Shown here piece after piece: positions 1,085-21,934 of a DNA stretch of 32,000 nt. Made by a program: the position numbers and the translations under genes. Under the pieces are notes generated by a model, which saw only the letters and a list, made by a program, of their open reading frames with translations, had not been told where the DNA came from and searched no databases. The stretch covers positions 60,001-92,000 of the forward strand of contig JASBSB010000003.1 in the NCBI GenBank assembly GCA_030149205.1, read 5' to 3'. The stretch comes from Candidatus Heimdallarchaeota archaeon. Lineage in GTDB: Archaea > Asgardarchaeota > Heimdallarchaeia > Heimdallarchaeales > Kariarchaeaceae. Each line of letters begins with the position of its first letter. Within the stretch, counting starts at the first letter, position 1.

Positions 1085-1573
1085 TTACTGTACAAGCTCT
1101 TTAACCATTACCAATGCACTTTCTCCATCATTATAATATCTTTCAAGTGTTTTTGCAACGAAAAAGCTTAAATTCTTATAGAGATGAATTGCTGCCACAT
1201 TTGATTCCCTGACCTCCAGAGTTACCTCCTTAATATTCTCCATCAAAAGTAGCCTGTTTAACACAAAATCCATCATACCTTTTCCAACTCCTTGACGTCT
1301 ATATTCTGGTAACACAGCAACACTAATAATGTGACCTTTTGGATATTTTTTAAGAAATAACTGTGAAAGTGGAAATTTCTCAATACGGGTAATTATATAA
1401 CCAATAATTTTTTTATCACTGACGGCTACAACACTGCTTTCCTTCCAATCTTTGATTAACTGAATAAAGTAACCTACGGGATAGTTTTCTGGGAGAGAGA
1501 TTCTGTTAATAGCTATTATACTTTCAAGATCATCAATGCTTGGATTTCTATAGGTGATGATTGATTGTTCCAT
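1085..1573 (-). CDS. rimI: GNAT N-terminal acetyltransferase (archaeal Ard1/RimI family)
   Basis: LPENY motif; GHIISVAVLPEYRRQGVG acetyl-CoA motif A; LEVRESN..AI.LY; YYNDGE.A.VM. Confidence 0.92.
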   Translation of the reverse strand: MEQSIITYRNPSIDDLESIIAINRISLPENYPVGYFIQLIKDWKESSVVAVSDKKIIGYIITRIEKFPLSQLFLKKYPKGHIISVAVLPEYRRQGVGKGMMDFVLNRLLLMENIKEVTLEVRESNVAAIHLYKNLSFFVAKTLERYYNDGESALVMVKELVQ

Positions 1574-1598
1574 TAGTTAAATCGTTTAAAACAAACCC

Positions 1599-1606
1599 AT
1601 TTATAA
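1599..1606 (-). promoter_or_regulatory. Candidate TATA box (TTATAAAT) for the acetyltransferase gene
   Basis: 26-33 nt upstream of ATG 1573. Confidence 0.3.
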
Positions 1607-1645
1607 TTCTCATGATTGTCATTCTAAAAATCGTGAAAAGTTTTT

Positions 1646-2776
1646 TCAAATTGCCTTATATTGCAAATCGTGAGTGTAATTCAATGTGTAACTACTCAAT
1701 ATACCACTAACCACAACTTTGATATCTATAGGTAAATTTTGATCAACATTTAGAACTTTTGATGTGTCAAAAATTAGGGTTCCTCCAATGACAACTTTTC
1801 CAACTAAACGACCCATTATATTCCAATCTGTATTTGAAAGCAAGGTTCCAGTGATGGTAGATAACTTTACATTTATCTCAGAGATATGTTCTGCAAGGTT
1901 TCCGGGATCAGAAATCTGAAGCTGTATCTGATAAAATAGGTAGGTTTTTATTGTACCGTTTACTGTTAATTGGTAAGACCTTCTAAATGAGGTGTCGACC
2001 GTTGCTCCTACTAATTCAGGTTTATTAGAAATCTGTTGAGGATAATAAATTCCGGGATTTAACTGACTTGAAATCATCAGAGTTAGAACCAAAAGCAAAA
2101 TAAGATAGGTAAATAGTTTATGAACCTGCTTTTCGATTAGAATATCCCTCTTTGTTTCTGATACATGTTGTGTTATTCCGCTTAGAAATTTACGAGGATT
2201 TAAATCATAAAATTCATCTTCACTTTCCTCATCATCCTTCCCAAAGACCCAAATACTTACCCCAATTCCACCTGCAACAAGATATAAAATGATCTGGATG
2301 CCAATATTCCTTTGTAATGCCAGGCTGAGATGCCCTAAATATTGAGCCTTCAAAACAATTTTTCCAAGCACTGCTTTCATAGGTATCTGGATACTGTTCC
2401 CAGAGTAAATATCAGGGATGCTGTTAGTCACAGGATTGTCCCCTTTGACTGAAAGATAATTCTGTCCTAAGCTTTGGGTTTTCAGGATGACCCTATGTAT
2501 GACTAGTAAGTTTGAGATAGGGTTATTATATACAATCACATCTCCGACCTTGATTTCCTCCCAATTTGCATGTTGAATAATAAAAATGTCTCCTTGCATG
2601 TAAGTAGGATTCATCGAATTAGGGTCACTGTTTTGAATTACAACAAAACTGTATCCCAGAAGAGAATTTAAGGTGCCTGTAATAAACAAAAGGGCGATTA
2701 TTACAACCAATCCTAAGAAGAAGTATTCCACATAGTCTTTTTTAATTCGCACTAGCTTATCTCTGAATCTCCCCAA
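1646..2776 (-). CDS. sec11: Signal peptidase I, Sec11/S26B type, with an extra C-terminal TM helix and extracytoplasmic beta domain
   Basis: N-terminal TM; catalytic Ser in NSMNPT..QGD; GDVIVY; His in VIHRV; KGDN; second TM IQIILYLVAGGIGVSIWVF; acidic linker; third TM; ~130 aa beta-rich tail. Confidence 0.88.
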   Translation of the reverse strand: MGRFRDKLVRIKKDYVEYFFLGLVVIIALLFITGTLNSLLGYSFVVIQNSDPNSMNPTYMQGDIFIIQHANWEEIKVGDVIVYNNPISNLLVIHRVILKTQSLGQNYLSVKGDNPVTNSIPDIYSGNSIQIPMKAVLGKIVLKAQYLGHLSLALQRNIGIQIILYLVAGGIGVSIWVFGKDDEESEDEFYDLNPRKFLSGITQHVSETKRDILIEKQVHKLFTYLILLLVLTLMISSQLNPGIYYPQQISNKPELVGATVDTSFRRSYQLTVNGTIKTYLFYQIQLQISDPGNLAEHISEINVKLSTITGTLLSNTDWNIMGRLVGKVVIGGTLIFDTSKVLNVDQNLPIDIKVVVSGILSSYTLNYTHDLQYKAI

Positions 2777-2813
2777 TAAATATTCATCTAAATCATCTTG
2801 AAATTATTACTAG

Positions 2814-4130
2814 TTATACAGGAATTGGGAATGATAATGTTGCGGCAATTACAGCAAGAACCAGCATTATTTTACTGTGAGGTGGAAGCTCACTTATATG
2901 ATTTAATACATCAAGGCTTCCATATCTCCCTGTGAAAAAGAAAAGAAGCAGCGCTAAATATACAAGACCATTCATTACCAGTAATAAAATTACGAGAAGT
3001 GAAAGTAGCATGGACTTCTGCTCACCTAAGCTTATTCTAAATAGGGTTCCACCATTGAACTGGTAAATAGGAAGAAACTGTATACCTGTTAAATAAATAA
3101 ACCCATATGCAATTAATGAGTAAGGAGAGAGCAGATAATTCGATGTGTATGACCCCGAAAAATTTAGTAATCCTAAATATTTTCCTAAATTAGTAAACAA
3201 TACCAACACAAGAGGTTCAAAGTTTCCTGAAACAAGAATTGACCTTACACCAAAAAGATGGGCTGCCTGGGCATCTAGAGTATTAGTAGAGATAAGTAGA
3301 AAGAAAGCAACAAGAGAAATCAACCAAACAATGAAGTTACCATAAAAGGAAACGTTGAATAGAGTCCCTTTATTGATGATCTTTTTCTTTTCTAATAGCA
3401 AATTTCCTAAGGTTCCTAATTCAAAGTAAGGTATAATTGGGATAGGAACAGATCTAACTGATTCTTCATTATTTATCTGAGAATTAAAGAGTTGAATTTT
3501 TGAACGTATTAAAACTATAGAAATTACTATCAAAGAAAAGATGCCTGCTTGAATGAGCATGTCCGCAGAGGATGGTAAAGTAAAAAGGCTTAGATAACCA
3601 GTTTCTAAGTGATTGATTGAGTTATTATATCGAAGAACCTCGAAATAACCAGACATTAATATTGTTAAGATGGTAAAAACCCAAAATAATCTATTCCATT
3701 TTTGAAATGTGTTCGAATTAGACCCTGAAGATCTATAGCTATAAACAAGGAGAAAGGAGTCTTTCCTCCTTCCAATTGGATATGCATTCGGGGTTAACCC
3801 AGCGTTAATTGATCGACATTCAGTAACTAGATCAGTAAATGTTTTATCAAGATTAGTTGGAACCTTAACTTCAAAAATTGGAGGAGAGATGGCTTTTGTA
3901 TTAATTATTGGGAACTTTTCCTCTGTGAGGTCTATAAGATCATTTAGTTTAAGGTCAAATTTTTTTCCTTTTGGACCGTCAAAGCTTACCACTACATTTT
4001 CTGGATTTAATTTTAACTTCTCTTCTCTAGATTGTGCGGTCGGATCCAAAACTTGCTCGCCACAATGTATACATTTGCCAGCGGGTGTTTTTTCTCCACA
4101 GGACCAGCAAACGAAGGTTTTATTTGACAC
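2814..4130 (-). CDS. Site-2 protease (M50) homolog lacking catalytic residues, with N-terminal zinc ribbon
   Basis: N-terminal CWSC...CIHC. M50 scaffold motifs PYFELGTLG, LFNVSFYGN and LPIYQFNGG are present, but HExxH aligns to RSKIQ and the LDGG Asp aligns to Asn. Confidence 0.8.
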   Translation of the reverse strand: MSNKTFVCWSCGEKTPAGKCIHCGEQVLDPTAQSREEKLKLNPENVVVSFDGPKGKKFDLKLNDLIDLTEEKFPIINTKAISPPIFEVKVPTNLDKTFTDLVTECRSINAGLTPNAYPIGRRKDSFLLVYSYRSSGSNSNTFQKWNRLFWVFTILTILMSGYFEVLRYNNSINHLETGYLSLFTLPSSADMLIQAGIFSLIVISIVLIRSKIQLFNSQINNEESVRSVPIPIIPYFELGTLGNLLLEKKKIINKGTLFNVSFYGNFIVWLISLVAFFLLISTNTLDAQAAHLFGVRSILVSGNFEPLVLVLFTNLGKYLGLLNFSGSYTSNYLLSPYSLIAYGFIYLTGIQFLPIYQFNGGTLFRISLGEQKSMLLSLLVILLLVMNGLVYLALLLFFFTGRYGSLDVLNHISELPPHSKIMLVLAVIAATLSFPIPV

Positions 4131-4193
4131 TAAGAAAAAGTAGGAACCTAGTTTATTAAGTTCTACACATGAGCATGGAAAAGTAATAGAATC

Positions 4194-5084
4194 TTAATAT
4201 CTCTTTTCTTTTGCAATGAGACCTCTGACAAATCTAAGTGACATTGCTACTAACAATAGCACGAAAGTATTTGCCCAGTTGTATAAAATGAATTGATTTG
4301 AATTTTGAATTGAAGCGTATATGTACATCCCTCCACTACTAAGCCAGAATATACCCTCGAATATGCCTAAGACATAATAATCATTGATCACTCTTTTTGA
4401 GACACTTGACAGGACAATTAGTAGACCCATAACTGAAATTCCAGCACCAAGGTACAAATCTGAGGTTATATACAGCCATTCTATATCATAAACCGTCATA
4501 TAGCCGAAATAATATGCAATAAATGAATAACTTAACACCGCGGAAATCCCCAAAAATCCAAAGGATTCAAGGACAATAAAGATATTTTTTCCTCGAAGAA
4601 GTAGTATTGATATGAAAAGAAATACACCTCCGCCTAAAAGTGATCCACCTATCAGTATTGGAGAGTACTGATATATTATTGTATTCCATAACTCAGAAAA
4701 AGTGTTAACGTGTATCTGGGCCAGATAATTCTCTAAAACAAAAAATGGGTCAAAAGAACCTACAGCATGTAAAATCAAATTATAAAACCCACCCATGAAG
4801 AGTGAAGAACCGATCAACATAATAATTCGTTTAACCCAATTTGCAGTTACAATAGGGGTATCTTTCAGGTGACTAATTTGAGAAACAGAATCTAGGTCTA
4901 CTCCTGCTATTTGCTCATACTGTTTATGTAATTTAGTGTAATATTCTTCGAGATCATTTCTCTTCTTAAGCAGATCTGCATTGGTTTTATCCTTTGCCAA
5001 TTTTTCATTTACGTTGTGTATCTCTCTACTGGTTGCTTCAATTTCTAAACGTAAATTAGCTCTAATTCTTTTTTGACTGTCCAC
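4194..5084 (-). CDS. Hypothetical membrane protein: N-terminal coiled coil plus about 6-7 TM helices
   Basis: Heptad-like charged first ~60 aa, then repeated ~20 aa hydrophobic segments; GTG start. Confidence 0.8.
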   Translation of the reverse strand: MDSQKRIRANLRLEIEATSREIHNVNEKLAKDKTNADLLKKRNDLEEYYTKLHKQYEQIAGVDLDSVSQISHLKDTPIVTANWVKRIIMLIGSSLFMGGFYNLILHAVGSFDPFFVLENYLAQIHVNTFSELWNTIIYQYSPILIGGSLLGGGVFLFISILLLRGKNIFIVLESFGFLGISAVLSYSFIAYYFGYMTVYDIEWLYITSDLYLGAGISVMGLLIVLSSVSKRVINDYYVLGIFEGIFWLSSGGMYIYASIQNSNQFILYNWANTFVLLLVAMSLRFVRGLIAKEKRY

Positions 5085-7709: not shown

Positions 7710-8282
7710 ATGATACAACTCTTGGACAAGGAGAGTATTGGTGATGAGCTAGTTGAAAGAATTGTGATTAGACTTACTGATCAGGGATATGATGAGGTTT
7801 TTCAGGTTTTAAGCAAATTGTTTCCAAAAGCCAAAGCAATGAGACTTCGTTCAATGTCTGAAGACCTTTCTGAGAAAAGAGACAACAGACTAATAGAATT
7901 CAACAATTTGATAGAAATGGAACCATTGGATCTGGAACTATTTAATACCCTCTCCAGTGCGGATCAAGATCCACAATTGATTTTCAACAGGGGGTCATGG
8001 GATCCCACAAAGTTTGAGCTCAAATTGGTTTGTGCGAGAACCCCATTAAAGGAATTTTTTGATGAGTGTAAAAGTATAACCTGTGAAAATTGTATAGTTA
8101 GCAGACTAGAAGCGTTTTCTCCTTGGAAAATCACATTGAACAGGGTTGAGGATCGAAGAGTTGATTTATGTAACAACTGTGGAATAATCCTTAGCAAGAA
8201 GGACCAAATTTTCTTAAGGAATGAGAGACTAACCTACGTGTGTCATAATTGTGGTCACAAAGGGTGGAATAAAGCTAAATAA
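7710..8282 (+). CDS. Hypothetical protein with Cys-rich, probably two-zinc C-terminal half
   Basis: Eight Cys: LVC, ECKSITCENC, LCNNCG, VCHNCG; helical acidic N-terminus; stop overlaps the top6A stop. Confidence 0.8.
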   Translation: MIQLLDKESIGDELVERIVIRLTDQGYDEVFQVLSKLFPKAKAMRLRSMSEDLSEKRDNRLIEFNNLIEMEPLDLELFNTLSSADQDPQLIFNRGSWDPTKFELKLVCARTPLKEFFDECKSITCENCIVSRLEAFSPWKITLNRVEDRRVDLCNNCGIILSKKDQIFLRNERLTYVCHNCGHKGWNKAK

Positions 8283-9687
8283 AATTACTGGTTTCTAATT
8301 TATCTGGTAAATAGTGATTTGTTATGAACTGAGGGTCTCTGGCATTTAAAGCCTGTATTTCTGCTTTAACGCCCAAAGACTGCAAAGTTTCCAGCTGTTT
8401 TCGCCACTTTGGTTTCCTTCGAACAAATTCTTCTTCCAACATTAATTTAATTTTGTTCTCATCGTTTTTAGTCAGCTTAATATGAGTTGAGGATGGAATA
8501 TGAAACCCAGAATCATCTTGCAGATCGGAAGGTAACAACCCCAACCATTTCATATTTGGAACAGCTAAGTTTGAGGCTTCAAAAGATAATGATTTAGACC
8601 CAACAGTGTATACTCTCATAATTTCTATTCCATAAACATCAGCATCCATGATTGCTAAAATTGGTAATTTCAATTCCTCATCAATCTTCTTAAGAAACAT
8701 TCTCGTTGCCATATCAGGTTGTCCTTTTGCTGTGACAATGATTGATGGGATATAATCATAGAATTGATCCTCTGCCAATCTATTAAAGACTGCATCTTTT
8801 TCAATAACCAGAACCATTTCTGCGTCACTTTGAATGTTCGAGATTTCTTCTACCATTGGGGCAATGGATTTCCCGGTTCCGATTTTAGTACAATCAATAA
8901 AATCTCCTTTTTCTTCAAATTGAAGCTTTCCAATCACCACACCTTTTGATGAGGCACTAACATTCAGGGAAGGCCTTGTAACTTGGAGTAATGCGCTAAG
9001 ATCTTCTATAAGGCTGTCTGAAGTGCTCTGCCCTTCGAATGCGTTTACATCTTGGTAGAATATATCTCTCTTTGTTGCATGTATATCTCTACTTAAAATT
9101 TCATCTAAGATAACCATCAACCTTGAAAGTTGATAAAAAGATTTTACTGAAGACAAGCTTCTAAATGCACGTTCAATTTTCTGTCGACCTAAAAGCACAT
9201 ATTCGCTCTCTTCATCATATCCTATGTTATCTCCAGAACGTGATGGAATGGAAAACGATGCTTCAGACGGATTCTTAAGAGAATCAAGAACAAATTGTTT
9301 TACAATCTGAGTGAGTCGACTCCTCGTCTCCTCTTCCTCAGTTTGATCAACTTTAAGAATACCGTAAGGCATGATCATTTCATCAGAATATTTACTCTGA
9401 AGGTCTCTAAAGTAGCTCTGGAACTTACTTAAACTTACATCTCTTTTTACATCTATTTCAAGTTTATCTGCCTTAAGGTCGTAGTCACTCAATTTCTTCT
9501 TAGGATCCAAGAAATACCATTTTTTCTTAACACGGATAAATAGTACAAATTTGCTGTTAGGAAGGTTGAACTCTTTTTTGACTTCCTTTTTTAGATCTGC
9601 CATTTCCCAAGTTGTATCTAAATTCAATATGGAATGCTCAACTGGTAGTGTTGTAGAATTTCGGATGGGGATCTCTCTTTTGACCAT
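8275..9687 (-). CDS. top6A: DNA topoisomerase VI subunit A (Spo11 family) with N-terminal ubiquitin-like domain
   Basis: IPSRSGDNIGYD; ATKRDIFYQD with catalytic Tyr211; TOPRIM VLVIEKDAVF and DADVYG; TAKGQPD.ATR.F; KAEIQAL. Confidence 0.97.
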   Translation of the reverse strand: MVKREIPIRNSTTLPVEHSILNLDTTWEMADLKKEVKKEFNLPNSKFVLFIRVKKKWYFLDPKKKLSDYDLKADKLEIDVKRDVSLSKFQSYFRDLQSKYSDEMIMPYGILKVDQTEEEETRSRLTQIVKQFVLDSLKNPSEASFSIPSRSGDNIGYDEESEYVLLGRQKIERAFRSLSSVKSFYQLSRLMVILDEILSRDIHATKRDIFYQDVNAFEGQSTSDSLIEDLSALLQVTRPSLNVSASSKGVVIGKLQFEEKGDFIDCTKIGTGKSIAPMVEEISNIQSDAEMVLVIEKDAVFNRLAEDQFYDYIPSIIVTAKGQPDMATRMFLKKIDEELKLPILAIMDADVYGIEIMRVYTVGSKSLSFEASNLAVPNMKWLGLLPSDLQDDSGFHIPSSTHIKLTKNDENKIKLMLEEEFVRRKPKWRKQLETLQSLGVKAEIQALNARDPQFITNHYLPDKLETSNFI

Positions 9688-12600
9688 TTATTTTCCTCCT
9701 TTGGATTTATTCTTTTTGCCCGGCTTTGTGGTTGGTTTACTTGTTTTCTTTTTCTCCTTCTCCAATTTCAATCTAAAATTAGATATCTCTTTGTTAGTTA
9801 AATTTGAAAATTGTTTAATATCTACATTTGGTGCAAATAAGAAATCTCCAAAAGATTTGATTTTTGATTTCTTAAGCTTCTTCTTTGCTTCAGATGGCAA
9901 TTTAGCTTCTTCTATATCGGTAGCCAGTAACCTTTGTAAGCTTAGTATACCTTCTGTGAATGGACTATTCTTGGGTAATTTAAAATCATTTATGTACACC
10001 TGAATGACGGATTTGATACCCTGCTTGTTTAATTCCTCAATATCCATTGCCCTAATTTTGCGAACCACGTTTAAGGGAGTTATGTCCTCCTTCCTGGCTC
10101 TGTTAATATCAGCTCGAGAGATTTCTGCAGTAACTGATTCAAATTCCTCTAAATTGTTTACCTTAAAATCTTTGAACAATGCGTCAGGAGGAGAAATCAG
10201 AATGTCATAGAGTGTCTTAATTTTCTTTCTTAGCAAGGCTTTAATTGATTTCAACCCTAGAGACCTGAGCGTTTGGGATTCCCAAAGGTAAATGTCTTTC
10301 AGTTTTTCTGATTGACTGAATGTGTTTTCTGTGATCCCTTGTAACCCACTAAAGTCAGCTGCTAAGACATTTGTAGTTAATTGAATCCAACTTGTAAAAT
10401 ATGAGTTTTTCAAACTATCAAAGGAGTTTTGAGGGAAATATCCTATATAGAACAGATTTTTTGTATTAACTAATTTATTTAGATCTAAGTTCTTCAATAA
10501 TGGAAAGTCATTGCTATCGTGTATGACCTTTGATAATATTACATCGGAGACATGGGTAATCCCCTGTTGTACCAATTTTTGAATATCATCAAGCTCTAGT
10601 TCAGGAATTGATAGAATTGAACTTCGTAATGTTTCTCTTGTAAGGTTTAGGTTTTCTGAAATTGAGTTATTTAAGTAATAATTATACATAAACTCCTCAA
10701 CAGTCTTAATACTTGAAGCATTCAATTCACTCTTTATTTGTTTGGGAACAGTTAAGGAGCTAAAGTCATGAAGGTCTGTCAAATAGTCATTTATATCCCA
10801 TTCGTTTACCAAATTTTCAAACATTGAACCCTTCAGATTATCTTCAGAGATATCTCCAAGAGTATCTCCTGTAAACAATTTCAAAATTTCAACTCGTTGC
10901 AGTTGTGGTAATTCCCAATAAAATTTTGCTGCCCAGAGTTTCGAGTTCAAAAATGATTTTAGATGACTAACTGGTTTAAATGTATTAGATAGAGATTTTG
11001 GGATATTAGGGTAGATTGATAATATCTTGAAATCAAAAAGACTCAATGAGAATAATTTTAACTCTGATTTAAGGAGATTAGACACGAATTTGTTATTATT
11101 CGTGGCAAACTCAACCTTAAACTCACCTCTTTTGTCGCTAAACGATTTGGCAGAAACACCTAAAGTATTAATCATTTCTTCCTCACTTTCAGTGTGAAGT
11201 TGCCAATATGTTGTGATACCAATCTCTCTAAGGTCTTTACTCCACTTTTCAGGGAAATTTATTATTTTGTTTAACGGGAGATGTAATAAACTTAGGATAT
11301 CACAAGTTTTCAACTTATCAGATTTTTGGAGTCTTTGTAAGGTTTCTTCATTAATCAATTCATTCATGGTTTCAACTTTATTGCTTTTTAAAAATTCAAC
11401 AAGGTTATGCTCTTGTATTGTATCTTCGACAAGCATTGAGCGTTGTACTATTATTGGGGTTGTAATGGGATCATGCTTGCTAAAATATTTATCTAAGAAT
11501 ACGCTAACCTTCACATTTGAAGTTGGTTTTTGAGAAAATACATCGTTATTAAGTATTAAATCAGCACTCTGACTTAGTTGAGACTTTATAGAATTGATTC
11601 TTTCTTCTTCAATCCCCATTTCGATCAACTGGTTTGAATTAGTCTCAAGGAGCTGTGTGAACAAGAAGATACCATTAGAATTGAGAATTTTTTCTTCTTG
11701 TGTTCGAATTTCAGGTAGGATATTTAATCTTGGGAGGTTACTCAAAATTTCATCTAAATCTAGGGGAGAAAGCGTAGTTGAAACTTCCTTTGATTGTAAA
11801 CCTTGTAGAAATTCTATGATTGTCCCTTCTGGTTCTATTTTGGCCTTTTCTAATAATTTTCTAATTTTCTGTGAATAGTTTAAAAGTAATGCAGGTGAAT
11901 TTAACAGGTCTTTGTATTGTTTTAAGATATTTTGATCTGGTTTACTCAACACTTGAGGTATCTCAGAACCAAGATCAATTAGACTATAAATATTTAAAGC
12001 CGTTAGCCGTTCTTTTCCTTTATCACTGATACTCTGGATGTTATTTATCTGAAGATTATCAATTGAAGTTAGTTTTTCAATCTCAACAAAGTTTATGCTT
12101 TTGATTTTTTCTTTTAATTCCTCTGTTGATATGTTTAAGACCTCAGTGATCGCTTTAGGAGAGGACACTAAAAGGTCAAATATGGAAGATATATTCAATT
12201 CGTCCAACTTATCCTGATCAAACAGTTTCAACAATTTTACACTTGTAAAGAAAATTCTTTGTTTAGAACCTAATTTTCCAGAACCAACTTTTTCCATCAA
12301 ATTTGACAATGGTTGAGATAAATCAATGAAAGATTTCATTGATTTTGGCAGATTTAAGTCGGAAACCTTAAGCAAACTTTGAACCTTTCTATGATTGTGA
12401 ATTATTAAATTAACCCTATCTTGATAATTTGATAATCTTTCAGAGAAATCAACTAAAGATTTTGGAAACATCAGAAAGTCTACTATTTCAAATATTGATT
12501 TTTTGAGTAATGCCTTTATTTCATTTAAGGTTAAAATATCTCTAAGTGTAGTATCTAGGATATGTGTAACCAAAAGAAAATGAATATTTTTTAATTCGAA

Positions 12601-15600
12601 GTCAATATTTACCAAGGGATGACTTCTTCTAATAAACAATTTAGGAAGTGTGTGGAGCGGATCTTCTAAAAATTCCAATGACTCCTCAGAGTACAAATCA
12701 TCATAATTTGAAATTTCTTCGCTATCAACATTAATAACAAAACTCAAGGCTATATCTTGCAGTTGTTTTATTCTCTTTTTAGATATTGAAGTGTTAGTAA
12801 ATAGCTCTGCCGGAGCTAACAGCAGGTCATTTATTGAGATGATCCCTGATTTCCATAATTCCCAAAGTTCTGTTTCTTCAATTGAAGAGAGCCCAGAAAT
12901 CAAATTGTATGAATTTTTGATGATTCTTTGAATAGGAAATGTGGGTTGTGAATTTGTTTTCATTATACTCATCGATCTTTCTATGGAATAGTTCCAAAGG
13001 TGGTGAAATCCAGTTACATGAGTTGCTAGCTGAGTCGAAATTTCATCAATACTGTTTTCCGGAAGATTCAATTCATCATGAACCACTAAATTTGATTGCA
13101 GTTCATGCCAAAATATATTGAACTCATCTTTTGACATTAAATCTTTTAGTTCTGATAAATAATGGATTAGTTCGTCTAACCATAATATTGGGATAGGAAC
13201 AGACAAACTGCGATTGTTGATAGACAACATGGTTAAAGGTATTTTCAAACCTTCACGAACGGCTTTTAAATTATTTTGCTTAATTCCTAAATAGGTATCT
13301 AACCTGTGAGGAGAGGATAGAATTGTTTGTACATTGACCTTCTCAGATTCAACCCTTCTAAAAAGGCTAAGAGAGACAGTTCTGATGAACTCTAAAGGTA
13401 ATTCTAGTTCAGTTTGAATTGTTGGATTTTTAAGAAATGTATCAACAAAACCTTTGGGTAATAACGGTCTTAGAAATGGGTCAGTAAGAAGTTCAAGTAC
13501 AGTTGAACAAGAATATTTGGTTGTAGCCAGATGAAGTAATGCCCCAGGTAAATCCAATAGAAGTGGTGATTCACACAAGGTTTCGTAAAGTAACTTTCCT
13601 TTTTTAGGTAGATTAGTCTTCCTGGATGGTTTTAAATCAACCCACATCTTAAAATTTTGAAGATTTGTTATTCCGACCGAACTTGGAGTATTTAGCGAAA
13701 TTTCTAAAGGTAACTGATTTTCAAGATATGTTTTCCAACCAACTAACAGGATATCTCTTATAATATCTAATTCATAGTCCATCATCCTAAAGGCCAGAAT
13801 TGATTCGATTATTGTTCTGGCTCCCAGATTTATAGTGTCTTGGAGGTCATTTGCATATCCATGTAAAAATACATTCGAAGAAAACAAAAATAGTTTAAGT
13901 TCTCTAATGTTTGGATTTTGAGTTGTCAGAACTGTGACTGTCTCGTCAAGGAACTTCACATTATCAAATTTTAAACTTGAATCGAAAACAAATTGATCAA
14001 CTGATAACCCTTTTCTTTCTAACAACTCGTTAAGCTCTGTAGTATCAAAATTATCCTTAAGTTCTCTAAAGAATTTTTGAGTCAAACCAGAGATTAAAGA
14101 CAGCTCCTTAGGGTCATTGAGGATCGCACCTTCAACAGTGGTAATACCCGCATTATAGAGGGACCTAAATTGTTCAGGGGTGAGATTTAGAATAGTTATA
14201 GGTGTTGTACCAGTTTTAACCAGTTCAATTAATGCACCTTTTTGTTTAAGCAATGACTGTATTATTGAGATAGTACCCTCTTCTGTGTTATCATAAAGTA
14301 ATACAAGGTCTGCAACCGTTAATTCAGATAGGTCATCTGATATCTCTTGATCCAGGACATTCACAAATGGAGTATTTTTTAACTCTAAACTGAGAAAGGA
14401 TCGAATTCTATAGAGTACCTCATGATTTAACGCAGGAGAGTTTTCTTTCCACCTTTCTAGTAATGTTCCATCAATTTCTTCATTTGACCCTGCAATTGCA
14501 GGTATCTTAGACATTGCAATTAATGGTTTAAGGTCAATGAATTTCTTCGTAAGTAATGTTAGTAATGCATCAATTTCGGGTGTGGGACTTGGGAGATCTT
14601 CATTTGATACAAACAACAAATCAACCAAATTATTTACATGAAACTCGTGTAATAACGATAGATCACCCTCACTAATAGTTTGGAAGACTTCCAAAGGTAA
14701 GTTTAAGACTTCTTGGACAGAGTTAATTATATCTAACAAATATCCTTCACCAAGAAAGTTAGAAGTGTTTATTTGATAGTACAGCTCTTGTAAGGTGTCT
14801 ATCTGACTAATTTCAAAGATTGTAGCCTTTTCTATGGTCTTTAATTCTGTTCTGTTGAATACATTTATGTCCTTTAAAGGTATTCCATTTTCAGATTCCT
14901 TCTGGGTGACTGATTCTATTGATACTAAATCTTTGATACCTCTCACATCTTTTTCTGATAATGTAAGAGTCTTTGCTAGTTTCTTGTTTGATGTCTCAAA
15001 AAAGTCTAAGATTGTATGAATTCCATTTGTAATTAGCTTCTGGGTTTCAAAATAAGTTAGACCAGGAATAAAATACACAGATTTATAAAATTGCCCCACC
15101 AATTCTTCGAATTCTAAAACGTGTTTTAGATTCTCATACCGCTCTGCCGGGAGCCCAGTCTTCTGTTCAAGTATTGGATCACCTGTTAGTAGAAAATCAA
15201 TAATAGTATTGACTCCATTTGCATTTAAGAGTGAAACTACATCCTCTCCTAAATCGTTTTCAACAAAATTAATTGGTAACCTAAGGATTGATTTTATTGC
15301 CTTAATTGCTTCCCAAGGGATTAAATTTGAGTCCCAAGACTCTTCAAATGATGAAAAATAAAGGTCTTCAACTGTGATATAATTCATTGAATTCAGGTGA
15401 GAAATATGTGATGGCCTGAATAGGTTGAGATTTTCAAGCTCAATTCCAACCTCTTGTAGGAATGCAGTGGTCTGTCTTTCTCGAGTTTTCTCCTCAGTCC
15501 AATCCAAGATCTTTGAGATTACTTCACTGGGTTGGGTGAGGAAATCAAAAACTCTGGTTAATTTTGCTAAAGAAAGAGACTTTAATTCGTCAGAAGTTAA

Positions 15601-18600
15601 TGTAACATATCGGAATTTTTTGGTTGTCACCGTTTCTTCCCCACTATCCACTCCCTCAGAATCTACTGGATCACCATCGTTACTATTCTCAGAATTTTCT
15701 GGAATTAAATCATTATCGAGTTCAGATTCTTCTCTTGGAATTTTGGTTGTTACCTCATATTCCTCTTTCCAAGATAAAAGTACAGAGGGAGACCGTAAGA
15801 GACTCTTCATATGATTAATTATGCTCCAGCTTAATCCAACTACCTCGAAGTTTTTAGCATTTGTTAGATAATATAATGTCTCTATGGTGTCATAACCACT
15901 ATCAATGAGACTATCAATCTCGGAATTACTAAAATGAGATATACCCTCATAATCAAAGGTAAAAATGGGTGAGTACTTCTTCCCTTCCAATTTGACTAAT
16001 GGGGTTCCAAAGTTCCTAAAAGTAGACTTGGATAATTTTTCATTTATGTTTTTCAGTGATTGTCCTAGCACTTTGGAAATTTTTGTAGCTGATGTTAAAA
16101 AGAGCTGGTAGACAGTCTTGATATGATGATTTTGAAGTAAATCAACCTCAACTGTGCTGAATTCACTTAAATGAATCAAAGATTTGGATAAATTCTCTTT
16201 GAGGTTAAAAACACGTATCCCAGAAAGAGTTGGTTCTATTAGTCCCTCAGGAAAGTTATTTTGTTTGAGGTTTAGATAAAGTTCTTCAATTAGGCCAGAT
16301 CCTTTCTTGTTTGAAACTAGTTTTGTTAACTTCGGAATAGAAGATGACATAAAATCAAATAAAAGTACAACACCACCATCTTCTAAATTTTTCAGGGCAG
16401 ATTTTAAGCTTTTTTCCTCTGATTTCGACACTTTCAGATTATCAACTAAGACACCAAGAGGTGAAAAAAGAGTATGGTTCAGTGTTTTATGATCATATAT
16501 ATTACCGTTTGTTAATGAATTTGGCAACTCGTCATTCCAAAGAGTTGTAATTAATTGATTTAAACTTTTAAAGCCGAGTTTCTCAAGAGCAATGATATCT
16601 TCTTTTGAGATAACATTTGTGAAATCATTGTAATCAGTTTGTTTGTTATTGACTTTATTGAGAGAAGAAAGTGAAATTCCGTCCAGGATTAAATCAAACC
16701 ACTCCCCACTAAGATTTGTAATAATTTCTAATTCGTCGGTATCCCAGATCAATAGTTTCCCTACTGTATTAATACCCGCGTCTAACAAGATTGGTAAATG
16801 TTGAATTAACTCTTCGGAGACTGTGTTTATTGGCAACAACATATTAGAATAAAGCTTCTCAAGTTTTTTTACATCTTTTTCATCTTTTGCATTTCCAATA
16901 AAATAATCAAAATTGAAATAAAACTCCTCCAGAGTTGAGACTCCAATTTTATTGAGAAGTTTTATCTCAGAGCTTTTTAACCCTTTAAACACAGTTTTGA
17001 ATGACTTTGCCCTTCTAACATGGTCTCTGATTTCACTTGGGAATTTATCAATTGGTAAGGCTAAAAATTCAGAGAGAGAGAGTAGATCATGTTTGATCAA
17101 ATAGCTTTCCAAATCTTGGTTTATGATTTTTAGCTCATAAAGGCTTTTAACATCATTTTGGCTTACTAGTTGGTCGATAATTTTTGCTTTGGTTGAGTTA
17201 AATAAGGCAATTGTTAATTTAGAATTTGCGTTTAATTTTGCACAATAATCAAGAGATTGTGTTAATGCTAATTCTTCTAGACTAGAAATACCCTCTTTCT
17301 TAAAGAGAGGCACATATACCATTGTTTCTTCATCAACCTCTTTAAACTTACCTAAGTCTGTCTTGACTTCTTTTAGTTTATCTATAATCCTTGTAAAAAT
17401 AAGTCTTAACAGCTCAGACATTTCTAAAAGAAGTTCGTCAGTTGCGCCTAAAACATCACCTAGCTTTGACAATTTTCTACGTTTAAAGGAGTTTTTTGTG
17501 TATCCGTCGGTCCATTTTTGATTCTGATCAATTCTTAAGTCTTTTAAGTCAGGATTTTTTTCTATAAGCTTTAGTATGCCATTTTTAAAATTGTCAATAA
17601 TTAATTGATTTAAACTATCATAAGTAATGGGGGATGATGGATTGGTAGTTTCAATCAAAAATTCAACATAAGAGGTTATTTTTCTTTTTTTCACTTCAGG
17701 GTATTCTAAAATCTCCTCAACAGTCGGTAAAAAGAAATCTAATTTAATTTTATCTGCTGTTAAACTTTCTGTTATTTCTTCCCTTAACTTAGGGTTAATA
17801 GCTTCAGGGATTGAGGTAGATTTAGAAGTCTTTTCTGGATCTTCTAGATTTATTTCTAAGAATTTCTCAAGTCCCATTAATTCTTCTTTTGAAAGCTGTA
17901 AATCACCAGAGGTGTTATCTCTATTTGTATATTCTAGTATATGTTGAATGATTTCAAGTCTTTTTTCTTCAAATATTTTAGGAAGAAGCCCCTGAATTCT
18001 TAGGAGATATTCATCTGGTGTAACTAGATAATCCCAAACATTTCTAATCCACTTTCTTGGGAGAGCTTTAGAAAGATGTAAGAGATTTAAACTTAAATCA
18101 CGTGAATGAAATCTCTTTTCTATTTCAGGATTAAGAAAAACCTGAGTTACTATGGGTTTAATTTTCTTAAAGTCATCAAATATAACTATAGTTCTTCTCT
18201 TGATCTCATCAATTTGGGATATATCGAGGTTGAGAATTTTCGAAAGTTTTTCGTTTCTTTCGGTCAAAAATTCCTCAACGGTCAAAATTCCAGATTTTTG
18301 TAGATTGTTTATAACATCAACATCACTCCAGATTGGTTCAATCAAAACGTGTTTTGTTTGAGGCTTAGAAAACCTTGCAATTCTGGCTTCACCTGAAGAA
18401 AGAGCTGCAATTACCCTAGATGGTTTTAATCCAGTCTTTGTATTCCAAACCCCTCCTCTTTCCAGTAAATTTATGAGATTTTCAACTGTTTTTGGTGCAT
18501 ACAGTTCAAATCGAGACCTTCTTTGTCTCTCTCTTTGCTTTCTTCGAGATCTACTTAAGAAAGATTTTAATTTTCTACCAAGCTGTAGCAGTGCTAATTT

Positions 18601-20094
18601 TACCTCTTCTGCGATTTCATCCACTTTATCAATATATTCTTTTGACGTTTCTGGGAAAGGGATTTTTGTAGAAACCAAAGATACCGCAATAGCTAGTGGA
18701 TCAGTTTGACGTGTGAGTCCATACTCGTTCCATTTTATGGAATTGACTACCTGAGTTATAACATCATTCCCTGCTCCAAAAATCAATGGAATTCTATTTG
18801 CATATCTATAAATAATTTTATTGTCAACTACTGTTACACCTTTGGAATTAACAGCTGAAGATACTCCTCCTCCGTAACCCAGTGCAGCTTCAATTACAAA
18901 TGGATGTCCTTCATAAGCCCTCGGTGGTCTTGAAACAGCTTCAACAAATACCGGCTCTAACTCTTTTTCTATCCCTTTTCTAAGTCTTGTAGTGCCTAGT
19001 GGAGATAAAGCGTCACCCTTAGGGTCATCAAATTTGAACACTCGATCCCTTTTCCTCTTAATCTCTTTAGATTCTCTAAGTGCCCTTTGAAATCCATCAT
19101 GTACGATTCGTCTTATTTCCTTATCTGTTAATTCTGAGGGAAGTTTCGATGAATCTACTCCAACTTCTTCGAAAAATAATTCTGCTGCTTGTTCAGTTAC
19201 ACCCATAAAATGTGTGACAAGGAAGTCTAAAACATTCTGTCCAGGTTCTGCGCTCACAATTTCTCTGCGGAAGGTTGTGATATCCGCACCCCAAGGGTGT
19301 ACTGGAACCACCTCTGGTGGTTTTGGAAGTTCATCAACAACTCTTTTGAAGAAGAACTCATCATCTAACCCTGCGGTATCGGAGGGTAAGAAAATATGCA
19401 TATCTGCATAAGGTGTAATTATAGCAAGCTGTTTGAAATATTCACGAACGTAATTTTTAGCCTGTCCCCAATTTCCTGTGAATGATACTTTTATATCCGT
19501 CCCGAACTCATCAAAAAATTCCTTGTCTCCCTCTCTGAATTGCTCATCACTGACAATTATAGGTTGGTTCTTTTCTAAATCGATCAGTAGTTTAACCCTA
19601 TATGTTACATCTTCACCAAGAGGTCGAGTCGTAATCTGAATCGGTAAATCCAATGTTGACATTGAGTAGAGAAGAACCATTTTACTACCAAGTCCAAATC
19701 TTCCCCTTGTTTGTTGAGCCCCATATTTTGTCCCTGCGAGAACTGTCCCAAATAGAGTTGGAATCAGTTCCCTTCTTACACCAACACCATTGTCCTTACA
19801 TGATAATTCTAGGAAGTCAAGTTTCTTATTCGACAATTTAGAAATCTCGATCTCCATTAGATCTCCAACTTCTGACAGGCTCATTTTTCTCAGTTGCATA
19901 CTAATTAATGGGGTAATATTACGCTTTTCTGAGGCATCTAACGCATTTTCTACTAACTCTCGAACTGAGGTGAATACAGCTCGCAATGGATTCCCAAAAC
20001 CTGCAATACTCTTGTTATCATTGAAAAAAACAGCAGCACTGGCTGCTCTTGCCTTTGAATCAGACTTTATAGCTTTCTTTTGTTTTGTACTCAT
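9688..20094 (-). CDS. top6B: Giant DNA topoisomerase VI subunit B (3468 aa) with a C-terminal array of HhH-like repeats
   Basis: GHKL motifs RELVENALDA, KDNGVG, QTRGRFGLG; H2TH (FLVTHFMGV); transducer YRYANRIPL and PFPETSKEYI (conserved Lys). The core ends near 18500 and the frame stays open for a further ~8.8 kb. Confidence 0.96.
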   Translation of the reverse strand: MSTKQKKAIKSDSKARAASAAVFFNDNKSIAGFGNPLRAVFTSVRELVENALDASEKRNITPLISMQLRKMSLSEVGDLMEIEISKLSNKKLDFLELSCKDNGVGVRRELIPTLFGTVLAGTKYGAQQTRGRFGLGSKMVLLYSMSTLDLPIQITTRPLGEDVTYRVKLLIDLEKNQPIIVSDEQFREGDKEFFDEFGTDIKVSFTGNWGQAKNYVREYFKQLAIITPYADMHIFLPSDTAGLDDEFFFKRVVDELPKPPEVVPVHPWGADITTFRREIVSAEPGQNVLDFLVTHFMGVTEQAAELFFEEVGVDSSKLPSELTDKEIRRIVHDGFQRALRESKEIKRKRDRVFKFDDPKGDALSPLGTTRLRKGIEKELEPVFVEAVSRPPRAYEGHPFVIEAALGYGGGVSSAVNSKGVTVVDNKIIYRYANRIPLIFGAGNDVITQVVNSIKWNEYGLTRQTDPLAIAVSLVSTKIPFPETSKEYIDKVDEIAEEVKLALLQLGRKLKSFLSRSRRKQRERQRRSRFELYAPKTVENLINLLERGGVWNTKTGLKPSRVIAALSSGEARIARFSKPQTKHVLIEPIWSDVDVINNLQKSGILTVEEFLTERNEKLSKILNLDISQIDEIKRRTIVIFDDFKKIKPIVTQVFLNPEIEKRFHSRDLSLNLLHLSKALPRKWIRNVWDYLVTPDEYLLRIQGLLPKIFEEKRLEIIQHILEYTNRDNTSGDLQLSKEELMGLEKFLEINLEDPEKTSKSTSIPEAINPKLREEITESLTADKIKLDFFLPTVEEILEYPEVKKRKITSYVEFLIETTNPSSPITYDSLNQLIIDNFKNGILKLIEKNPDLKDLRIDQNQKWTDGYTKNSFKRRKLSKLGDVLGATDELLLEMSELLRLIFTRIIDKLKEVKTDLGKFKEVDEETMVYVPLFKKEGISSLEELALTQSLDYCAKLNANSKLTIALFNSTKAKIIDQLVSQNDVKSLYELKIINQDLESYLIKHDLLSLSEFLALPIDKFPSEIRDHVRRAKSFKTVFKGLKSSEIKLLNKIGVSTLEEFYFNFDYFIGNAKDEKDVKKLEKLYSNMLLPINTVSEELIQHLPILLDAGINTVGKLLIWDTDELEIITNLSGEWFDLILDGISLSSLNKVNNKQTDYNDFTNVISKEDIIALEKLGFKSLNQLITTLWNDELPNSLTNGNIYDHKTLNHTLFSPLGVLVDNLKVSKSEEKSLKSALKNLEDGGVVLLFDFMSSSIPKLTKLVSNKKGSGLIEELYLNLKQNNFPEGLIEPTLSGIRVFNLKENLSKSLIHLSEFSTVEVDLLQNHHIKTVYQLFLTSATKISKVLGQSLKNINEKLSKSTFRNFGTPLVKLEGKKYSPIFTFDYEGISHFSNSEIDSLIDSGYDTIETLYYLTNAKNFEVVGLSWSIINHMKSLLRSPSVLLSWKEEYEVTTKIPREESELDNDLIPENSENSNDGDPVDSEGVDSGEETVTTKKFRYVTLTSDELKSLSLAKLTRVFDFLTQPSEVISKILDWTEEKTRERQTTAFLQEVGIELENLNLFRPSHISHLNSMNYITVEDLYFSSFEESWDSNLIPWEAIKAIKSILRLPINFVENDLGEDVVSLLNANGVNTIIDFLLTGDPILEQKTGLPAERYENLKHVLEFEELVGQFYKSVYFIPGLTYFETQKLITNGIHTILDFFETSNKKLAKTLTLSEKDVRGIKDLVSIESVTQKESENGIPLKDINVFNRTELKTIEKATIFEISQIDTLQELYYQINTSNFLGEGYLLDIINSVQEVLNLPLEVFQTISEGDLSLLHEFHVNNLVDLLFVSNEDLPSPTPEIDALLTLLTKKFIDLKPLIAMSKIPAIAGSNEEIDGTLLERWKENSPALNHEVLYRIRSFLSLELKNTPFVNVLDQEISDDLSELTVADLVLLYDNTEEGTISIIQSLLKQKGALIELVKTGTTPITILNLTPEQFRSLYNAGITTVEGAILNDPKELSLISGLTQKFFRELKDNFDTTELNELLERKGLSVDQFVFDSSLKFDNVKFLDETVTVLTTQNPNIRELKLFLFSSNVFLHGYANDLQDTINLGARTIIESILAFRMMDYELDIIRDILLVGWKTYLENQLPLEISLNTPSSVGITNLQNFKMWVDLKPSRKTNLPKKGKLLYETLCESPLLLDLPGALLHLATTKYSCSTVLELLTDPFLRPLLPKGFVDTFLKNPTIQTELELPLEFIRTVSLSLFRRVESEKVNVQTILSSPHRLDTYLGIKQNNLKAVREGLKIPLTMLSINNRSLSVPIPILWLDELIHYLSELKDLMSKDEFNIFWHELQSNLVVHDELNLPENSIDEISTQLATHVTGFHHLWNYSIERSMSIMKTNSQPTFPIQRIIKNSYNLISGLSSIEETELWELWKSGIISINDLLLAPAELFTNTSISKKRIKQLQDIALSFVINVDSEEISNYDDLYSEESLEFLEDPLHTLPKLFIRRSHPLVNIDFELKNIHFLLVTHILDTTLRDILTLNEIKALLKKSIFEIVDFLMFPKSLVDFSERLSNYQDRVNLIIHNHRKVQSLLKVSDLNLPKSMKSFIDLSQPLSNLMEKVGSGKLGSKQRIFFTSVKLLKLFDQDKLDELNISSIFDLLVSSPKAITEVLNISTEELKEKIKSINFVEIEKLTSIDNLQINNIQSISDKGKERLTALNIYSLIDLGSEIPQVLSKPDQNILKQYKDLLNSPALLLNYSQKIRKLLEKAKIEPEGTIIEFLQGLQSKEVSTTLSPLDLDEILSNLPRLNILPEIRTQEEKILNSNGIFLFTQLLETNSNQLIEMGIEEERINSIKSQLSQSADLILNNDVFSQKPTSNVKVSVFLDKYFSKHDPITTPIIVQRSMLVEDTIQEHNLVEFLKSNKVETMNELINEETLQRLQKSDKLKTCDILSLLHLPLNKIINFPEKWSKDLREIGITTYWQLHTESEEEMINTLGVSAKSFSDKRGEFKVEFATNNNKFVSNLLKSELKLFSLSLFDFKILSIYPNIPKSLSNTFKPVSHLKSFLNSKLWAAKFYWELPQLQRVEILKLFTGDTLGDISEDNLKGSMFENLVNEWDINDYLTDLHDFSSLTVPKQIKSELNASSIKTVEEFMYNYYLNNSISENLNLTRETLRSSILSIPELELDDIQKLVQQGITHVSDVILSKVIHDSNDFPLLKNLDLNKLVNTKNLFYIGYFPQNSFDSLKNSYFTSWIQLTTNVLAADFSGLQGITENTFSQSEKLKDIYLWESQTLRSLGLKSIKALLRKKIKTLYDILISPPDALFKDFKVNNLEEFESVTAEISRADINRARKEDITPLNVVRKIRAMDIEELNKQGIKSVIQVYINDFKLPKNSPFTEGILSLQRLLATDIEEAKLPSEAKKKLKKSKIKSFGDFLFAPNVDIKQFSNLTNKEISNFRLKLEKEKKKTSKPTTKPGKKNKSKGGK
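9695..9699 (-). promoter_or_regulatory. Shine-Dalgarno GGAGG for top6A, encoded within the last codons of top6B
   Basis: Minus strand reads AAA GGA GGA AAA TAA ATG; GGAGG is 7 nt upstream of ATG 9687. Confidence 0.8.
9770..18310 (-). repeat. Protein-level tandem array of about 35-40 degenerate RadA/Rad51-NTD-like (HhH) units inside Top6B
   Basis: Recurrent motif L-x-x-x-G-I-x-T/S-h-x-D/E-h-h, e.g. LQKSGILTVEEFL, LLDAGINTVGKLL, LNANGVNTIIDFL, LYNAGITTVEGAI, LWKSGIISINDLL, LREIGITTYWQL, LNKQGIKSVIQV. Recurrent linker L-x-x-P-h, e.g. LLRSPSVL, ILRLPINF, VLNLPLEV, LLNSPALL, LLHLPLNK. Count made by eye. Confidence 0.85.
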
Positions 20095-20323: not shown

Positions 20324-21934
20324 CTAAAATTTCTTGGATTTTACAAGCTCAAATTGATATCTCTGTTTTAATTTTTCAATTTCTTGAAGAAAATTTGAAG
20401 ATTGAGTTATATTACTTGATTCTTCTAGAAATACTGTAAGAGAGGTATTATATTGTTTCGAGATGATCCCCATAAATAGGATATATTTCAAAATGAGGCT
20501 ATTCTCTAACATTGTATAAATTGGTTTTCCTTGGGATATCGATTCTCGGATTGAGGTAATATAAATTGAATAATCTTGTAGCCACCCCTTACTAACGGTA
20601 AGAAGGTTTTCCATTGTTAATGATTGATCTGAAAGATACATTGTTTTTAATAGGTGTAAGGCTGCTCCTACAGAGCCTCCTGAATATCCTATCTGCTTTA
20701 GATCATCACCTGTGATTAATTCATTAAATTTTTTCTGGAAAGTAGATAAAGCTGAAAACCGTTCTTCTAACTGATGATAGCTGATATGTGTTGTCTGACC
20801 TTCTATTGATATACAGGTTAAAGTTGAGATGTAGGTTTCAATCAATTCTGATCTCAATTCTAACAAATTCAATGCTTTTGTAAAGTGATCAAAGCTTATG
20901 ATAAGGTTTGACGCAATACCTATGTTGAACTTCGAATCTTGAAGATGAACGTCGTGGGTCAAGAATCGGAGTATTATCGCAATTTTATTAACATCCTGAC
21001 GTTTCATTCCTCTAAGATATTTCTTAACAAAGTTGGATAATATTTCGATTTGAAATACTAGAATTTTATTGTCTGATTGATTAAGAATGAAGGTGTAATA
21101 GAAGAGAACCCATCTGACATCTGTGTTATAGTTTTCTGAGACTTTCAGTTGAGCTATTAGAGTTTTAAGTAAATTAGAGGGAACTTTTGCATCAAATAAT
21201 AGACCAAAAATGTTAATTTCTGTGAACTCTTGAAAGGCTATATGTGAGTTAGGTGATTTGAGTATTGTGTTAAATTCAAGATACACACGTTCTTTCGACA
21301 CTCCTCGTAATTTTGATTGTAATGTTTTTGAAATCATGGCTTGTTTAGTTAAGGGTTCAATCTTAAAATTAAATCTTGCTGCGAATCTTACAGCCCTTAT
21401 TATCCGTAAACTATCTTCTTTAATTCGTTGTTCGGGGTTCCCGACAGTTCTGATGATATGATCCTTAAGATCAGTTATCCCTAAGAAGTGATCAATAATT
21501 TCACCATTTTCGTCAGATGCCATCGCATTTATTGTAAAATCTCGTCTTGCCAAATCTGACCTTAAATCAGACACAAAAGTCACTTTGTCTGGCCTTCTAT
21601 TATCTGAGTAACCCATATCAATTCGATAAGTAGTAATATCAGCCTTGAGCCCTTGGAATAGTATTCCAATTGTCCCATGCTTGATTCCAATAGTGAATAG
21701 CTTGTATTTGGAAAATATGGTTTTTATTTCCTTTGGAGAAGCATTTGTTGCGATATCAACATCAAGAACCATGTTCTTGACAAAATTAACTACATTAGGC
21801 TCAATTTTGAAAAAAGAACTGTTTTGAAGGATGAGAGAGTCTCTCACTAACCCTCCGACCAAATAAGCCTGATATCCTTTAGTCTTTATGAGGTTTAGTA
21901 ATTCTTGTACTCGGGGGTCTATGGTAATTTGCAT
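20324..21934 (-). CDS. cca: Class II (bacterial/eukaryotic-type) CCA tRNA nucleotidyltransferase
   Basis: YLVGGLVRD..DVDIAT (motif A); GIKHGT; DLARRDFTINAMA (motif B); EDSLRIIRAVRF (motif D); SKERV. No poly(A)-polymerase GRRF signature and no HD domain seen. Confidence 0.9.
   Translation of the reverse strand: MQITIDPRVQELLNLIKTKGYQAYLVGGLVRDSLILQNSSFFKIEPNVVNFVKNMVLDVDIATNASPKEIKTIFSKYKLFTIGIKHGTIGILFQGLKADITTYRIDMGYSDNRRPDKVTFVSDLRSDLARRDFTINAMASDENGEIIDHFLGITDLKDHIIRTVGNPEQRIKEDSLRIIRAVRFAARFNFKIEPLTKQAMISKTLQSKLRGVSKERVYLEFNTILKSPNSHIAFQEFTEINIFGLLFDAKVPSNLLKTLIAQLKVSENYNTDVRWVLFYYTFILNQSDNKILVFQIEILSNFVKKYLRGMKRQDVNKIAIILRFLTHDVHLQDSKFNIGIASNLIISFDHFTKALNLLELRSELIETYISTLTCISIEGQTTHISYHQLEERFSALSTFQKKFNELITGDDLKQIGYSGGSVGAALHLLKTMYLSDQSLTMENLLTVSKGWLQDYSIYITSIRESISQGKPIYTMLENSLILKYILFMGIISKQYNTSLTVFLEESSNITQSSNFLQEIEKLKQRYQFELVKSKKF

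Follow-up and report, generated by a model that had tools for sequence, protein, structure and literature searches.

A giant topoisomerase VI B subunit with a long array of helix–hairpin–helix modules in Heimdall-group archaea

The B subunit of DNA topoisomerase VI (Topo VI) encoded in a 32,000-nucleotide stretch of a Kariarchaeaceae genome (hereafter the window; positions 60,001–92,000 of contig JASBSB010000003.1, forward strand, assembly GCA_030149205.1) continues past a complete core into an arm of approximately 24 helix–hairpin–helix (HhH) modules. Its gene, top6B (window 9688–20094, minus strand), runs through 3,468 codons uninterrupted by a stop, giving a protein of about 396 kDa, and is the sole Top6B gene of the genome (3.3 Mb in 12 contigs, 93.5% complete), as a genome-wide search found no second one. 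The array architecture is conserved across Heimdall-group archaea. We propose, with a probability of about 0.45 for the explanation as a whole, that it is best explained as a Topo VI with a built-in accessory that holds DNA or chromatin for unlinking and segregation. The initial annotation of this DNA had described an uninterrupted 10.4-kb open reading frame (ORF) that joins a Top6B to a very long series of diverged repeats; the frame is real, and the same frame is open in more than 40 relatives.

Core and helical array of the giant Top6B

The Top6B core (residues 1–546; window 18457–20094, minus strand) comprises the GHKL ATPase, H2TH and transducer regions. It matched NCBIfam PRK04184 at 4e-132 (441 bits; cut-off, 274) and TIGR01052 at 368.9 bits, slightly below the cut-off of 380.7, and the transducer matched Pfam PF09239 at 5e-53. 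The Saccharolobus shibatae structure 2zbk_B aligned over residues 14–547 (E = 2e-89) and that of Methanosarcina mazei, 2q2e_B, aligned with the core at 5e-59. Residues E46, N50 and D53 aligned to E38, N42 and D45 of 2zbk_B, E46 and N50 being the catalytic Glu and Asn positions; both glycine boxes are in place (DNGVGV and GRFGLGSK), and the switch lysine K485, aligned to K427 of 2zbk_B, is invariant across 15 orthologues. The earlier description of a complete Top6B with ATPase and transducer motifs is upheld by these matches and conserved residues. Directly downstream and without a gap lies top6A (window 8275–9687, minus strand), whose 470-residue product is identified as the partner subunit with 5Y-CAP and Toprim domains by TP6A_N (3.5e-18) and Top6A/Spo11 Toprim (2e-58) matches. 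Given the intact ATPase motifs and the adjoining partner gene, the protein is the B subunit of a complete-looking, apparently functional Topo VI. Canonical archaeal Top6Bs (S. shibatae 2zbk_B, 530 residues; M. mazei 2q2e_B, 621 residues) align end to end with the core and share with it the ATP-binding motifs, the switch lysine and the adjacent top6A, but the giant Top6B runs on for 2,900 all-helical residues past the core. Known Top6B forms terminate in one or two helices or in an Ig-like domain of ~100 residues (PMC9348778).

The extension of ~2,900 residues is nearly all helical. The Arg-rich, basic end of the long transducer helix (residues ~515–535) and a linker of ~45 residues lead from the core to the array (window 18325–18552, minus strand, as are all features of the protein below). 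The array itself begins with the first HhH unit at residue ~591, extends to residue 3445 (window 9760–18324) and is followed by a Lys-rich C-terminal tail (residues 3446–3468, the last ~23 of the protein; window 9691–9759); the arm has a mass of ~334 kDa. Pfam searches of the extension gave scattered weak matches to RAD51D_N (60.5 bits; cut-off, 27.3), the C-terminal domain (CTD) of the RNA polymerase alpha subunit (alphaCTD; RNA_pol_A_CTD, 26.6 bits; cut-off, 23.8), HHH_5, AF1548-like_C and DUF4332. A hidden Markov model (HMM) seeded from the Pfam hits and iterated on the protein and 16 orthologues defined a ~31-residue unit, and one seeded from the tandem hits and likewise iterated defined a module of 119 residues. 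The module contains two units that resemble alphaCTD and the N-terminal domain (NTD) of Rad51, arranged as a short unit (L-x3-G-I-x-T-x-E-D-L-Y-F), a connecting helix ending in L-x-x-P, and a long unit that extends through a second G-L-S hairpin and a terminal helix. The alternation of long and short repeats joined by L-x-x-P-h linkers in the initial annotation corresponds to the long and short halves of this single module and the helix between them.

The module HMM recovered 16 modules in the giant Top6B at 1e-4 and 18 at 1e-2, and 304 modules across 17 proteins; shuffled and reversed control sequences yielded none at 1e-4. Five of seven tested stretches skipped by the HMM were degenerate modules at 82–99% probability in profile–profile comparison, whereas two skipped stretches (residues 640–830 and 2990–3100) were weakly supported, at 57–63%. 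Counting degenerate ones, approximately 24 modules of ~119 residues, or ~48 units, cover residues 591–3445. The sole departures from the modular array are a flexible loop of low hydrophobicity (residues ~729–782; window 17749–17910; predicted local distance difference test (pLDDT) < 40) and an acidic low-complexity loop (residues ~1445–1496; window 15607–15762; net charge −9). The repeat span first read from the sequence, 9770–18310, corresponds to residues ~595–3441 and agrees with the array as delimited here. The repeats themselves were borne out by the HMM and its controls, but the proposed number of 35–40 units was somewhat low, ~48 being nearer. No nucleotide-level repeats were found in the ORF, as had been noted.

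An AlphaFold model of residues 1480–2030, built from an 18-sequence alignment, consists entirely of short helices (mean pLDDT, 87.4; predicted TM score (pTM), 0.82). Since this pTM is high for about nine small domains, the model suggests a fixed domain arrangement rather than beads on a string. When the model was compared with 48,161 solved chains, the best match was the RAD51D NTD (Z = 8.6), closely followed by the RAD51C NTD (Z = 8.5; root-mean-square deviation of 1.8 Å over 61 of 64 residues), with the caveat that Z values near 8 are only modestly above the helical background and that the query is a predicted model. Next came AF1548-C, the yeast Rad51 NTD (Z = 6.8) and the acidic repeat AR2 of NusA (Z = 6.7), and further matches included the HhH thumbs of Y-family polymerases, alphaCTD and SAM domains. 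A profile of 25 modules matched alphaCTD at 1.3e-4 and, more weakly among PDB entries, RAD51D, Dbh/Dpo4, NusA and DMC1/RAD51. In a model of the junction (residues 440–1020; pLDDT, 79.7), the long transducer helix passes through a short linker into array units from residue ~591. Both models are all-helical past the transducer, with nothing like a beta-rich globular CTD of the Ig-like or GyrA-type beta-pinwheel kind. Foldseek searches with the whole array against the PDB and AlphaFold DB clusters returned no significant whole-length match, just hits at unit level or weak ones to HhH proteins. On these predictions, the unit conforms to a ~60-residue, five-helix, two-hairpin (HhH)2 or Rad51-NTD-like fold. 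The RadA/Rad51-NTD-like identity proposed for the repeats therefore stands on two of the checks suggested with it: profile searches, which gave RAD51D_N, alphaCTD, HHH_5 and DUF4332, and segmented modelling, in which both segments were helical and units matched Rad51-paralogue NTDs. A single unit shares its profile, predicted fold and L-x3-G-h-x-T-h-x-D-h...L...G-h-S pattern with the NTDs of Rad51/RadA and the RAD51 paralogues, with alphaCTD and with the acidic repeats of NusA. In Rad51/RadA, polymerase and NusA, such units occur once or twice per protein, whereas the giant Top6B chains ~48.

Conservation and growth of the array

A transducer-model search revealed open frames of 3,300–4,305 residues in four families and 13 genera of the same order, including two single-contig genomes. 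Top6B frames of 2,312–2,346 residues occur in a sister family and match a protein labelled Hodarchaeales; another family has a Top6B of ~1,110–1,155 residues and a second, canonical copy of ~500 residues, and a family of another class has a Top6B of ~2,290 residues and a canonical copy of 564 residues. In all, more than 40 relatives carry an open frame of 2,300–4,300 residues, with lengths that are stable by family (3,470–3,640, ~4,150–4,300 and ~2,310–2,345 residues). The survey of Top6B length across Asgard genomes that the initial annotation had called for finds long forms across the Heimdall group, varying in length with the family. The closest database relatives (3,483–3,641 residues) come from NCBI, ENA, JGI and Logan and include one labelled Kariarchaeaceae; submitter organism labels are unreliable for the distant array-bearing clusters. 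A search of 1.84 billion representative proteins gave only 38 module matches below 1e-30, and a Top6B core was present in many of the highest-ranking ones. Leu-rich-repeat proteins that came up weakly in the library search were rejected as false positives. Four unrelated proteins of 1,000–1,700 residues (P0057, P0058, P0073 and P0084) contain several alphaCTD or HHH_5 domains, and one of them combines seven alphaCTD copies with sigma-70 region 4. Elsewhere in the source genome, only generic HhH proteins matched the module: a 470-residue protein with four canonical HHH_5 domains (L041:624-2036, plus strand), which is the nearest match outside Top6B, and a Hel308-type helicase (L042:474-3716, plus strand) that carries an intein splicing domain inside its helicase core.

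It is extremely improbable that the long ORF arose by chimeric assembly or by reading through from one gene into another. Two assemblies do lose the frame exactly at the core/array boundary (L029:2230-2360 and L044:620-850), but the former break reflects the change of a single base within a run of A, the latter comes with the loss of ~40 residues of the transducer end, and both are probably errors. Moreover, dozens of independent assemblies drawn from several sources, as well as two single-contig genomes, have the same fusion, and the examined top hits without a core were ended by a contig end: P0023 is a contig-end fragment followed by top6A, and P0030 is a piece from a broken contig on which a Top6B transducer ORF lies immediately upstream. 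A stand-alone array protein and a programmed frameshift were also considered and rejected, given the truncation of P0023 by its contig end and the nature of the L029 and L044 breaks.

Core and extension have evolved at different rates, with mean identities to this protein across the order of 66% and 25%, respectively. The better-conserved proximal half of the array (residues 591–2024; window 14023–18324) is colinear with its Heimdallarchaeaceae counterparts, one BLAST alignment extending to residue 2024. The distal half (residues 2025–3445; window 9760–14022) evolves fast, with 14–30% identity across the order and no BLAST alignment between families, and contains modules throughout. One module in the proximal half (residues 1543–1660; window 15115–15468) is the best conserved, at 57–61% identity between genera versus ~30% for the rest of the array. 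In a maximum-likelihood tree of 29 cores (midpoint-rooted; L013, L026, L027, L028 and L029 were left out as near-duplicate, N-terminally cut or frameshifted), all 13 array-bearing proteins lie on one side of a branch with support of 100/99 that is present in 100% of bootstrap trees. Within this group, a form with 3–4 modules branches first, followed by forms with 12, 16 and 20–27 (HMM count), a pattern that fits one origin and stepwise growth of the array; overall, module number increases from 3–4 through 12 and 16 to 24–27. The suggestion that the array is an old, retained and diverged expansion is sustained by its colinearity with another family over ~1,500 residues and by the absence of DNA-level repeats. 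Loki-type Asgard Top6Bs (frames of ~1,000–1,150 residues) are likewise over-long and likewise occur in gyrase-bearing lineages, but what lengthens them is a short C-terminal part together with insertions within the core or ahead of it, and no module was matched in the three compared (L045, L046 and L047).

Partner subunit and second type II enzyme

At every fetched locus, top6A lies immediately downstream of top6B, except where the contig ended first. The Top6A of the giant enzyme begins with an extra N-terminal domain of ~90–95 residues (window 9403–9687, minus strand). This domain is present in the partners of Top6Bs with at least 12 modules and missing in those of the 1,115-residue form, a Loki-type enzyme and a canonical second Topo VI. 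Upstream of top6B (window 20324–21934, minus strand) is a gene for a class II nucleotidyltransferase with a PolyA_pol head domain, a type unusual in an archaeon.

The source genome also encodes gyrase, with gyrB and gyrA ~72 kb away on the same contig. Of 45 genomes sampled from the array-bearing families f1–f6, 44 gave a GyrA match, as did none of the five f7 and two f15 genomes; f7 and f15 each have a second, canonical Top6B, accompanied by its own short Top6A where checked (f15). In every array-bearing family sampled, either gyrase or a canonical Topo VI is encoded as a further type II enzyme, which suggests that the giant Topo VI is specialised. Gyrase as the strict cause of the arm was rejected, as GyrA is absent from two array-bearing families and modules are absent from Loki-type lineages that do bear gyrase. 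The Topo VI of M. mazei is reported to be a preferential decatenase (PMC8837201), and Villain et al. proposed that C-terminal additions of Top6B mark specialisation beside gyrase (PMC9348778). In several genomes (G015, G020, G183, G195 and others), GyrA frames of ~1,270–1,740 residues have a Pfam match that is split at profile position ~93, which suggests a large insertion, possibly an intein.

Possible roles of the arm

The arm begins ~45 residues past the transducer helix and, judged by homologous solved structures of Topo VI, would lie beside the Top6A DNA gate. The prediction is of an all-helical array, rigid over most of its length, interrupted by two flexible, acidic loops and with the Lys-rich tail at its end. 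An A2B2 enzyme would carry two such arms and weigh roughly 0.9 MDa; to our knowledge, the known forms of Topo VI are compact enzymes of about 200 kDa. We infer that the arm is a built-in accessory that retains the enzyme on the chromosome and aids in finding or holding a second duplex; the basic tail and stalk, together with weak multivalent binding by some of the units, would provide the contact with DNA or chromatin. The enzyme would thereby be biased towards unlinking and segregation, and routine supercoil control would be left to the second type II enzyme, that is, gyrase in this organism and a canonical Topo VI in the two gyrase-less families. Some contact with DNA or chromatin would be in line with the position of the arm next to the Top6A gate, the strongly basic end of the transducer helix, the K/S/T-rich tail and the DNA-binding relatives of the unit fold. 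In the giant Top6B, clearly basic character is confined to the end of the transducer helix and the final ~25 residues. Every examined orthologue of the order ends in a K/S/T-rich tail (net charge of +9 to +29 over the last 50 residues), and these tails are longer than the Lys-rich tail of this Top6B.

Several observations weigh against this explanation. The arm of this protein has a net charge of −73 and an isoelectric point of 5.3, and the net charge of the extension ranges from −97 to +67 among orthologues. The GhG hairpin, the canonical phosphate-binding hairpin of DNA-binding HhH motifs, is essentially absent (Gly frequency of 0.02 at the third position, considering all three hairpins of the 304 modules). 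Conserved module positions are those of the hydrophobic core together with Gly, Thr, Asp and Pro, and a sole position is conserved as Lys/Arg, at 68%. At the equivalents of the DNA-contact positions of alphaCTD, which we take to be R265 and K298/S299 of Escherichia coli, the module consensus is acidic or neutral (HMMER alignment with the Thermus thermophilus alphaCTD). In addition, the extension evolves much faster than the core, and the association with another type II enzyme comes from a few clades rather than from independent events. A DNA-binding arm remains plausible, weakened by the charge and motif data.

Alternatively, the arm would act as a protein–protein scaffold or spacer for factors such as chromatin proteins, the segregation machinery or other Topo VI molecules, with DNA touched by the tail alone, and we regard this as the strongest competitor, if a somewhat doubtful one. 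In its favour, the arm is acidic and lacks a conserved basic surface and GhG hairpins; its nearest structural matches include domains that make protein contacts (the RAD51C and RAD51D NTDs, NusA AR2 bound to alphaCTD, and SAM domains), and the module at residues 1543–1660 is far better conserved than the rest, as a docking site would be. However, the gene neighbourhood beyond top6A yielded no candidate partner, HhH domains are able to contact DNA by way of the main chain, for which conserved side chains are unnecessary, and the Rad51 NTD and alphaCTD bind DNA as well. It is improbable that the arm is the largely neutral product of a runaway domain expansion on an essential enzyme, with little function past the first few modules and the tail. 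The low identity of the distal half, its failure to align between families in BLAST and the range from 3–4 to 27 modules among lineages speak for this, but more than 10 kb has been kept open in over 40 genomes, the fold-determining residues are retained in 304 modules, lengths of array-bearing Top6Bs are stable within families and degenerate stretches still score as modules. The ORF is also free of nucleotide repeats, and therefore of signs of recent slippage.

A more far-reaching proposal, which we consider unlikely yet marginally more probable than neutral expansion, is that the giant Topo VI is also a chromosome-scale structural protein. Distant DNA segments would then be anchored by two long semi-rigid arms, each ending in an H1-like basic tail, and the enzyme would bridge or organise chromatin besides unlinking it. 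Histone-fold proteins (PF00808) were detected in 4 of 30 genomes of the order, three of them weakly, and in neither of the two single-contig genomes. PF00808 occurs in nearly all other Asgard families, including 15 of 15 genomes of the family with ~2,300-residue Top6Bs, at 6–11 copies each. Searches of the source genome for Alba, DUF1931 and HU found none. A 2026 preprint describes a Kariarchaeaceae metagenome-assembled genome without nucleosomal histones and with truncated face-to-face histones (10.64898/2026.07.02.735847). As the order is one clade, its scarcity of histones counts as one event.

Returning to the arm as a DNA- or chromatin-holding accessory, we compared it with other topoisomerase appendages. 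The CTDs of GyrA/ParC and of eukaryotic Topo II are accessory DNA-binding parts. Together with the plant Topo VI partners RHL1 and BIN4 (PMC9665070), they share with the giant Top6B the concept that a type II enzyme is steered to chromatin or to DNA of certain geometries by an attached part or a partner, but their folds differ (a beta-pinwheel, a disordered tail and separate polypeptides, respectively) and no homology was detected. Closest in layout is topoisomerase V of Methanopyrus kandleri, in which a long tandem array of HhH type likewise comes after a topoisomerase domain; it is a type IC enzyme with 12 tandem (HhH)2 domains that wrap DNA (PMC9489208). Its catalytic module is unrelated to the type IIB Top6B, and the giant Top6B has ~4 times more domains, of the GhG-less Rad51-NTD/alphaCTD type, in an arm that is net acidic; Foldseek gave a weak whole-length resemblance between the two (E = 0.48). 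The analogies with topoisomerase V and the GyrA CTD drawn in the initial annotation would thus concern layout only, given the net charge of the arm, the absence of GhG, the single basic conserved position and the terminal location of the basic parts. We found no description of the array architecture in the searchable literature on Top6B and Topo VI in Asgard archaea, in keeping with the initial view that no equivalent had been described. One study enters "CTD +" for Asgard TopoVIB (PMC9665070) and another models a globular CTD for Asgard (PMC9348778), neither mentioning an array, and databases label the giant relatives simply "DNA topoisomerase VI subunit B".

Were the giant Topo VI also a structural protein of the chromosome, it would parallel, in a prokaryote, the scaffold function that has been suggested for eukaryotic Topo II, and the longest arm and long K/S/T-rich tails would have arisen in the one order largely without canonical nucleosomal histones. 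So long a natural chain of a single small fold is unusual and may interest protein engineers. Topo VI is the main decatenase of archaea and the ancestor of the Spo11 meiotic break machinery. With an arm that grew stepwise beside a constantly present second type II enzyme, the Heimdall-group lineages offer a natural experiment on the specialisation of a topoisomerase by an appendage, and the giant Topo VI may bear on how enzymes of DNA topology became linked to chromosome architecture before eukaryotes.

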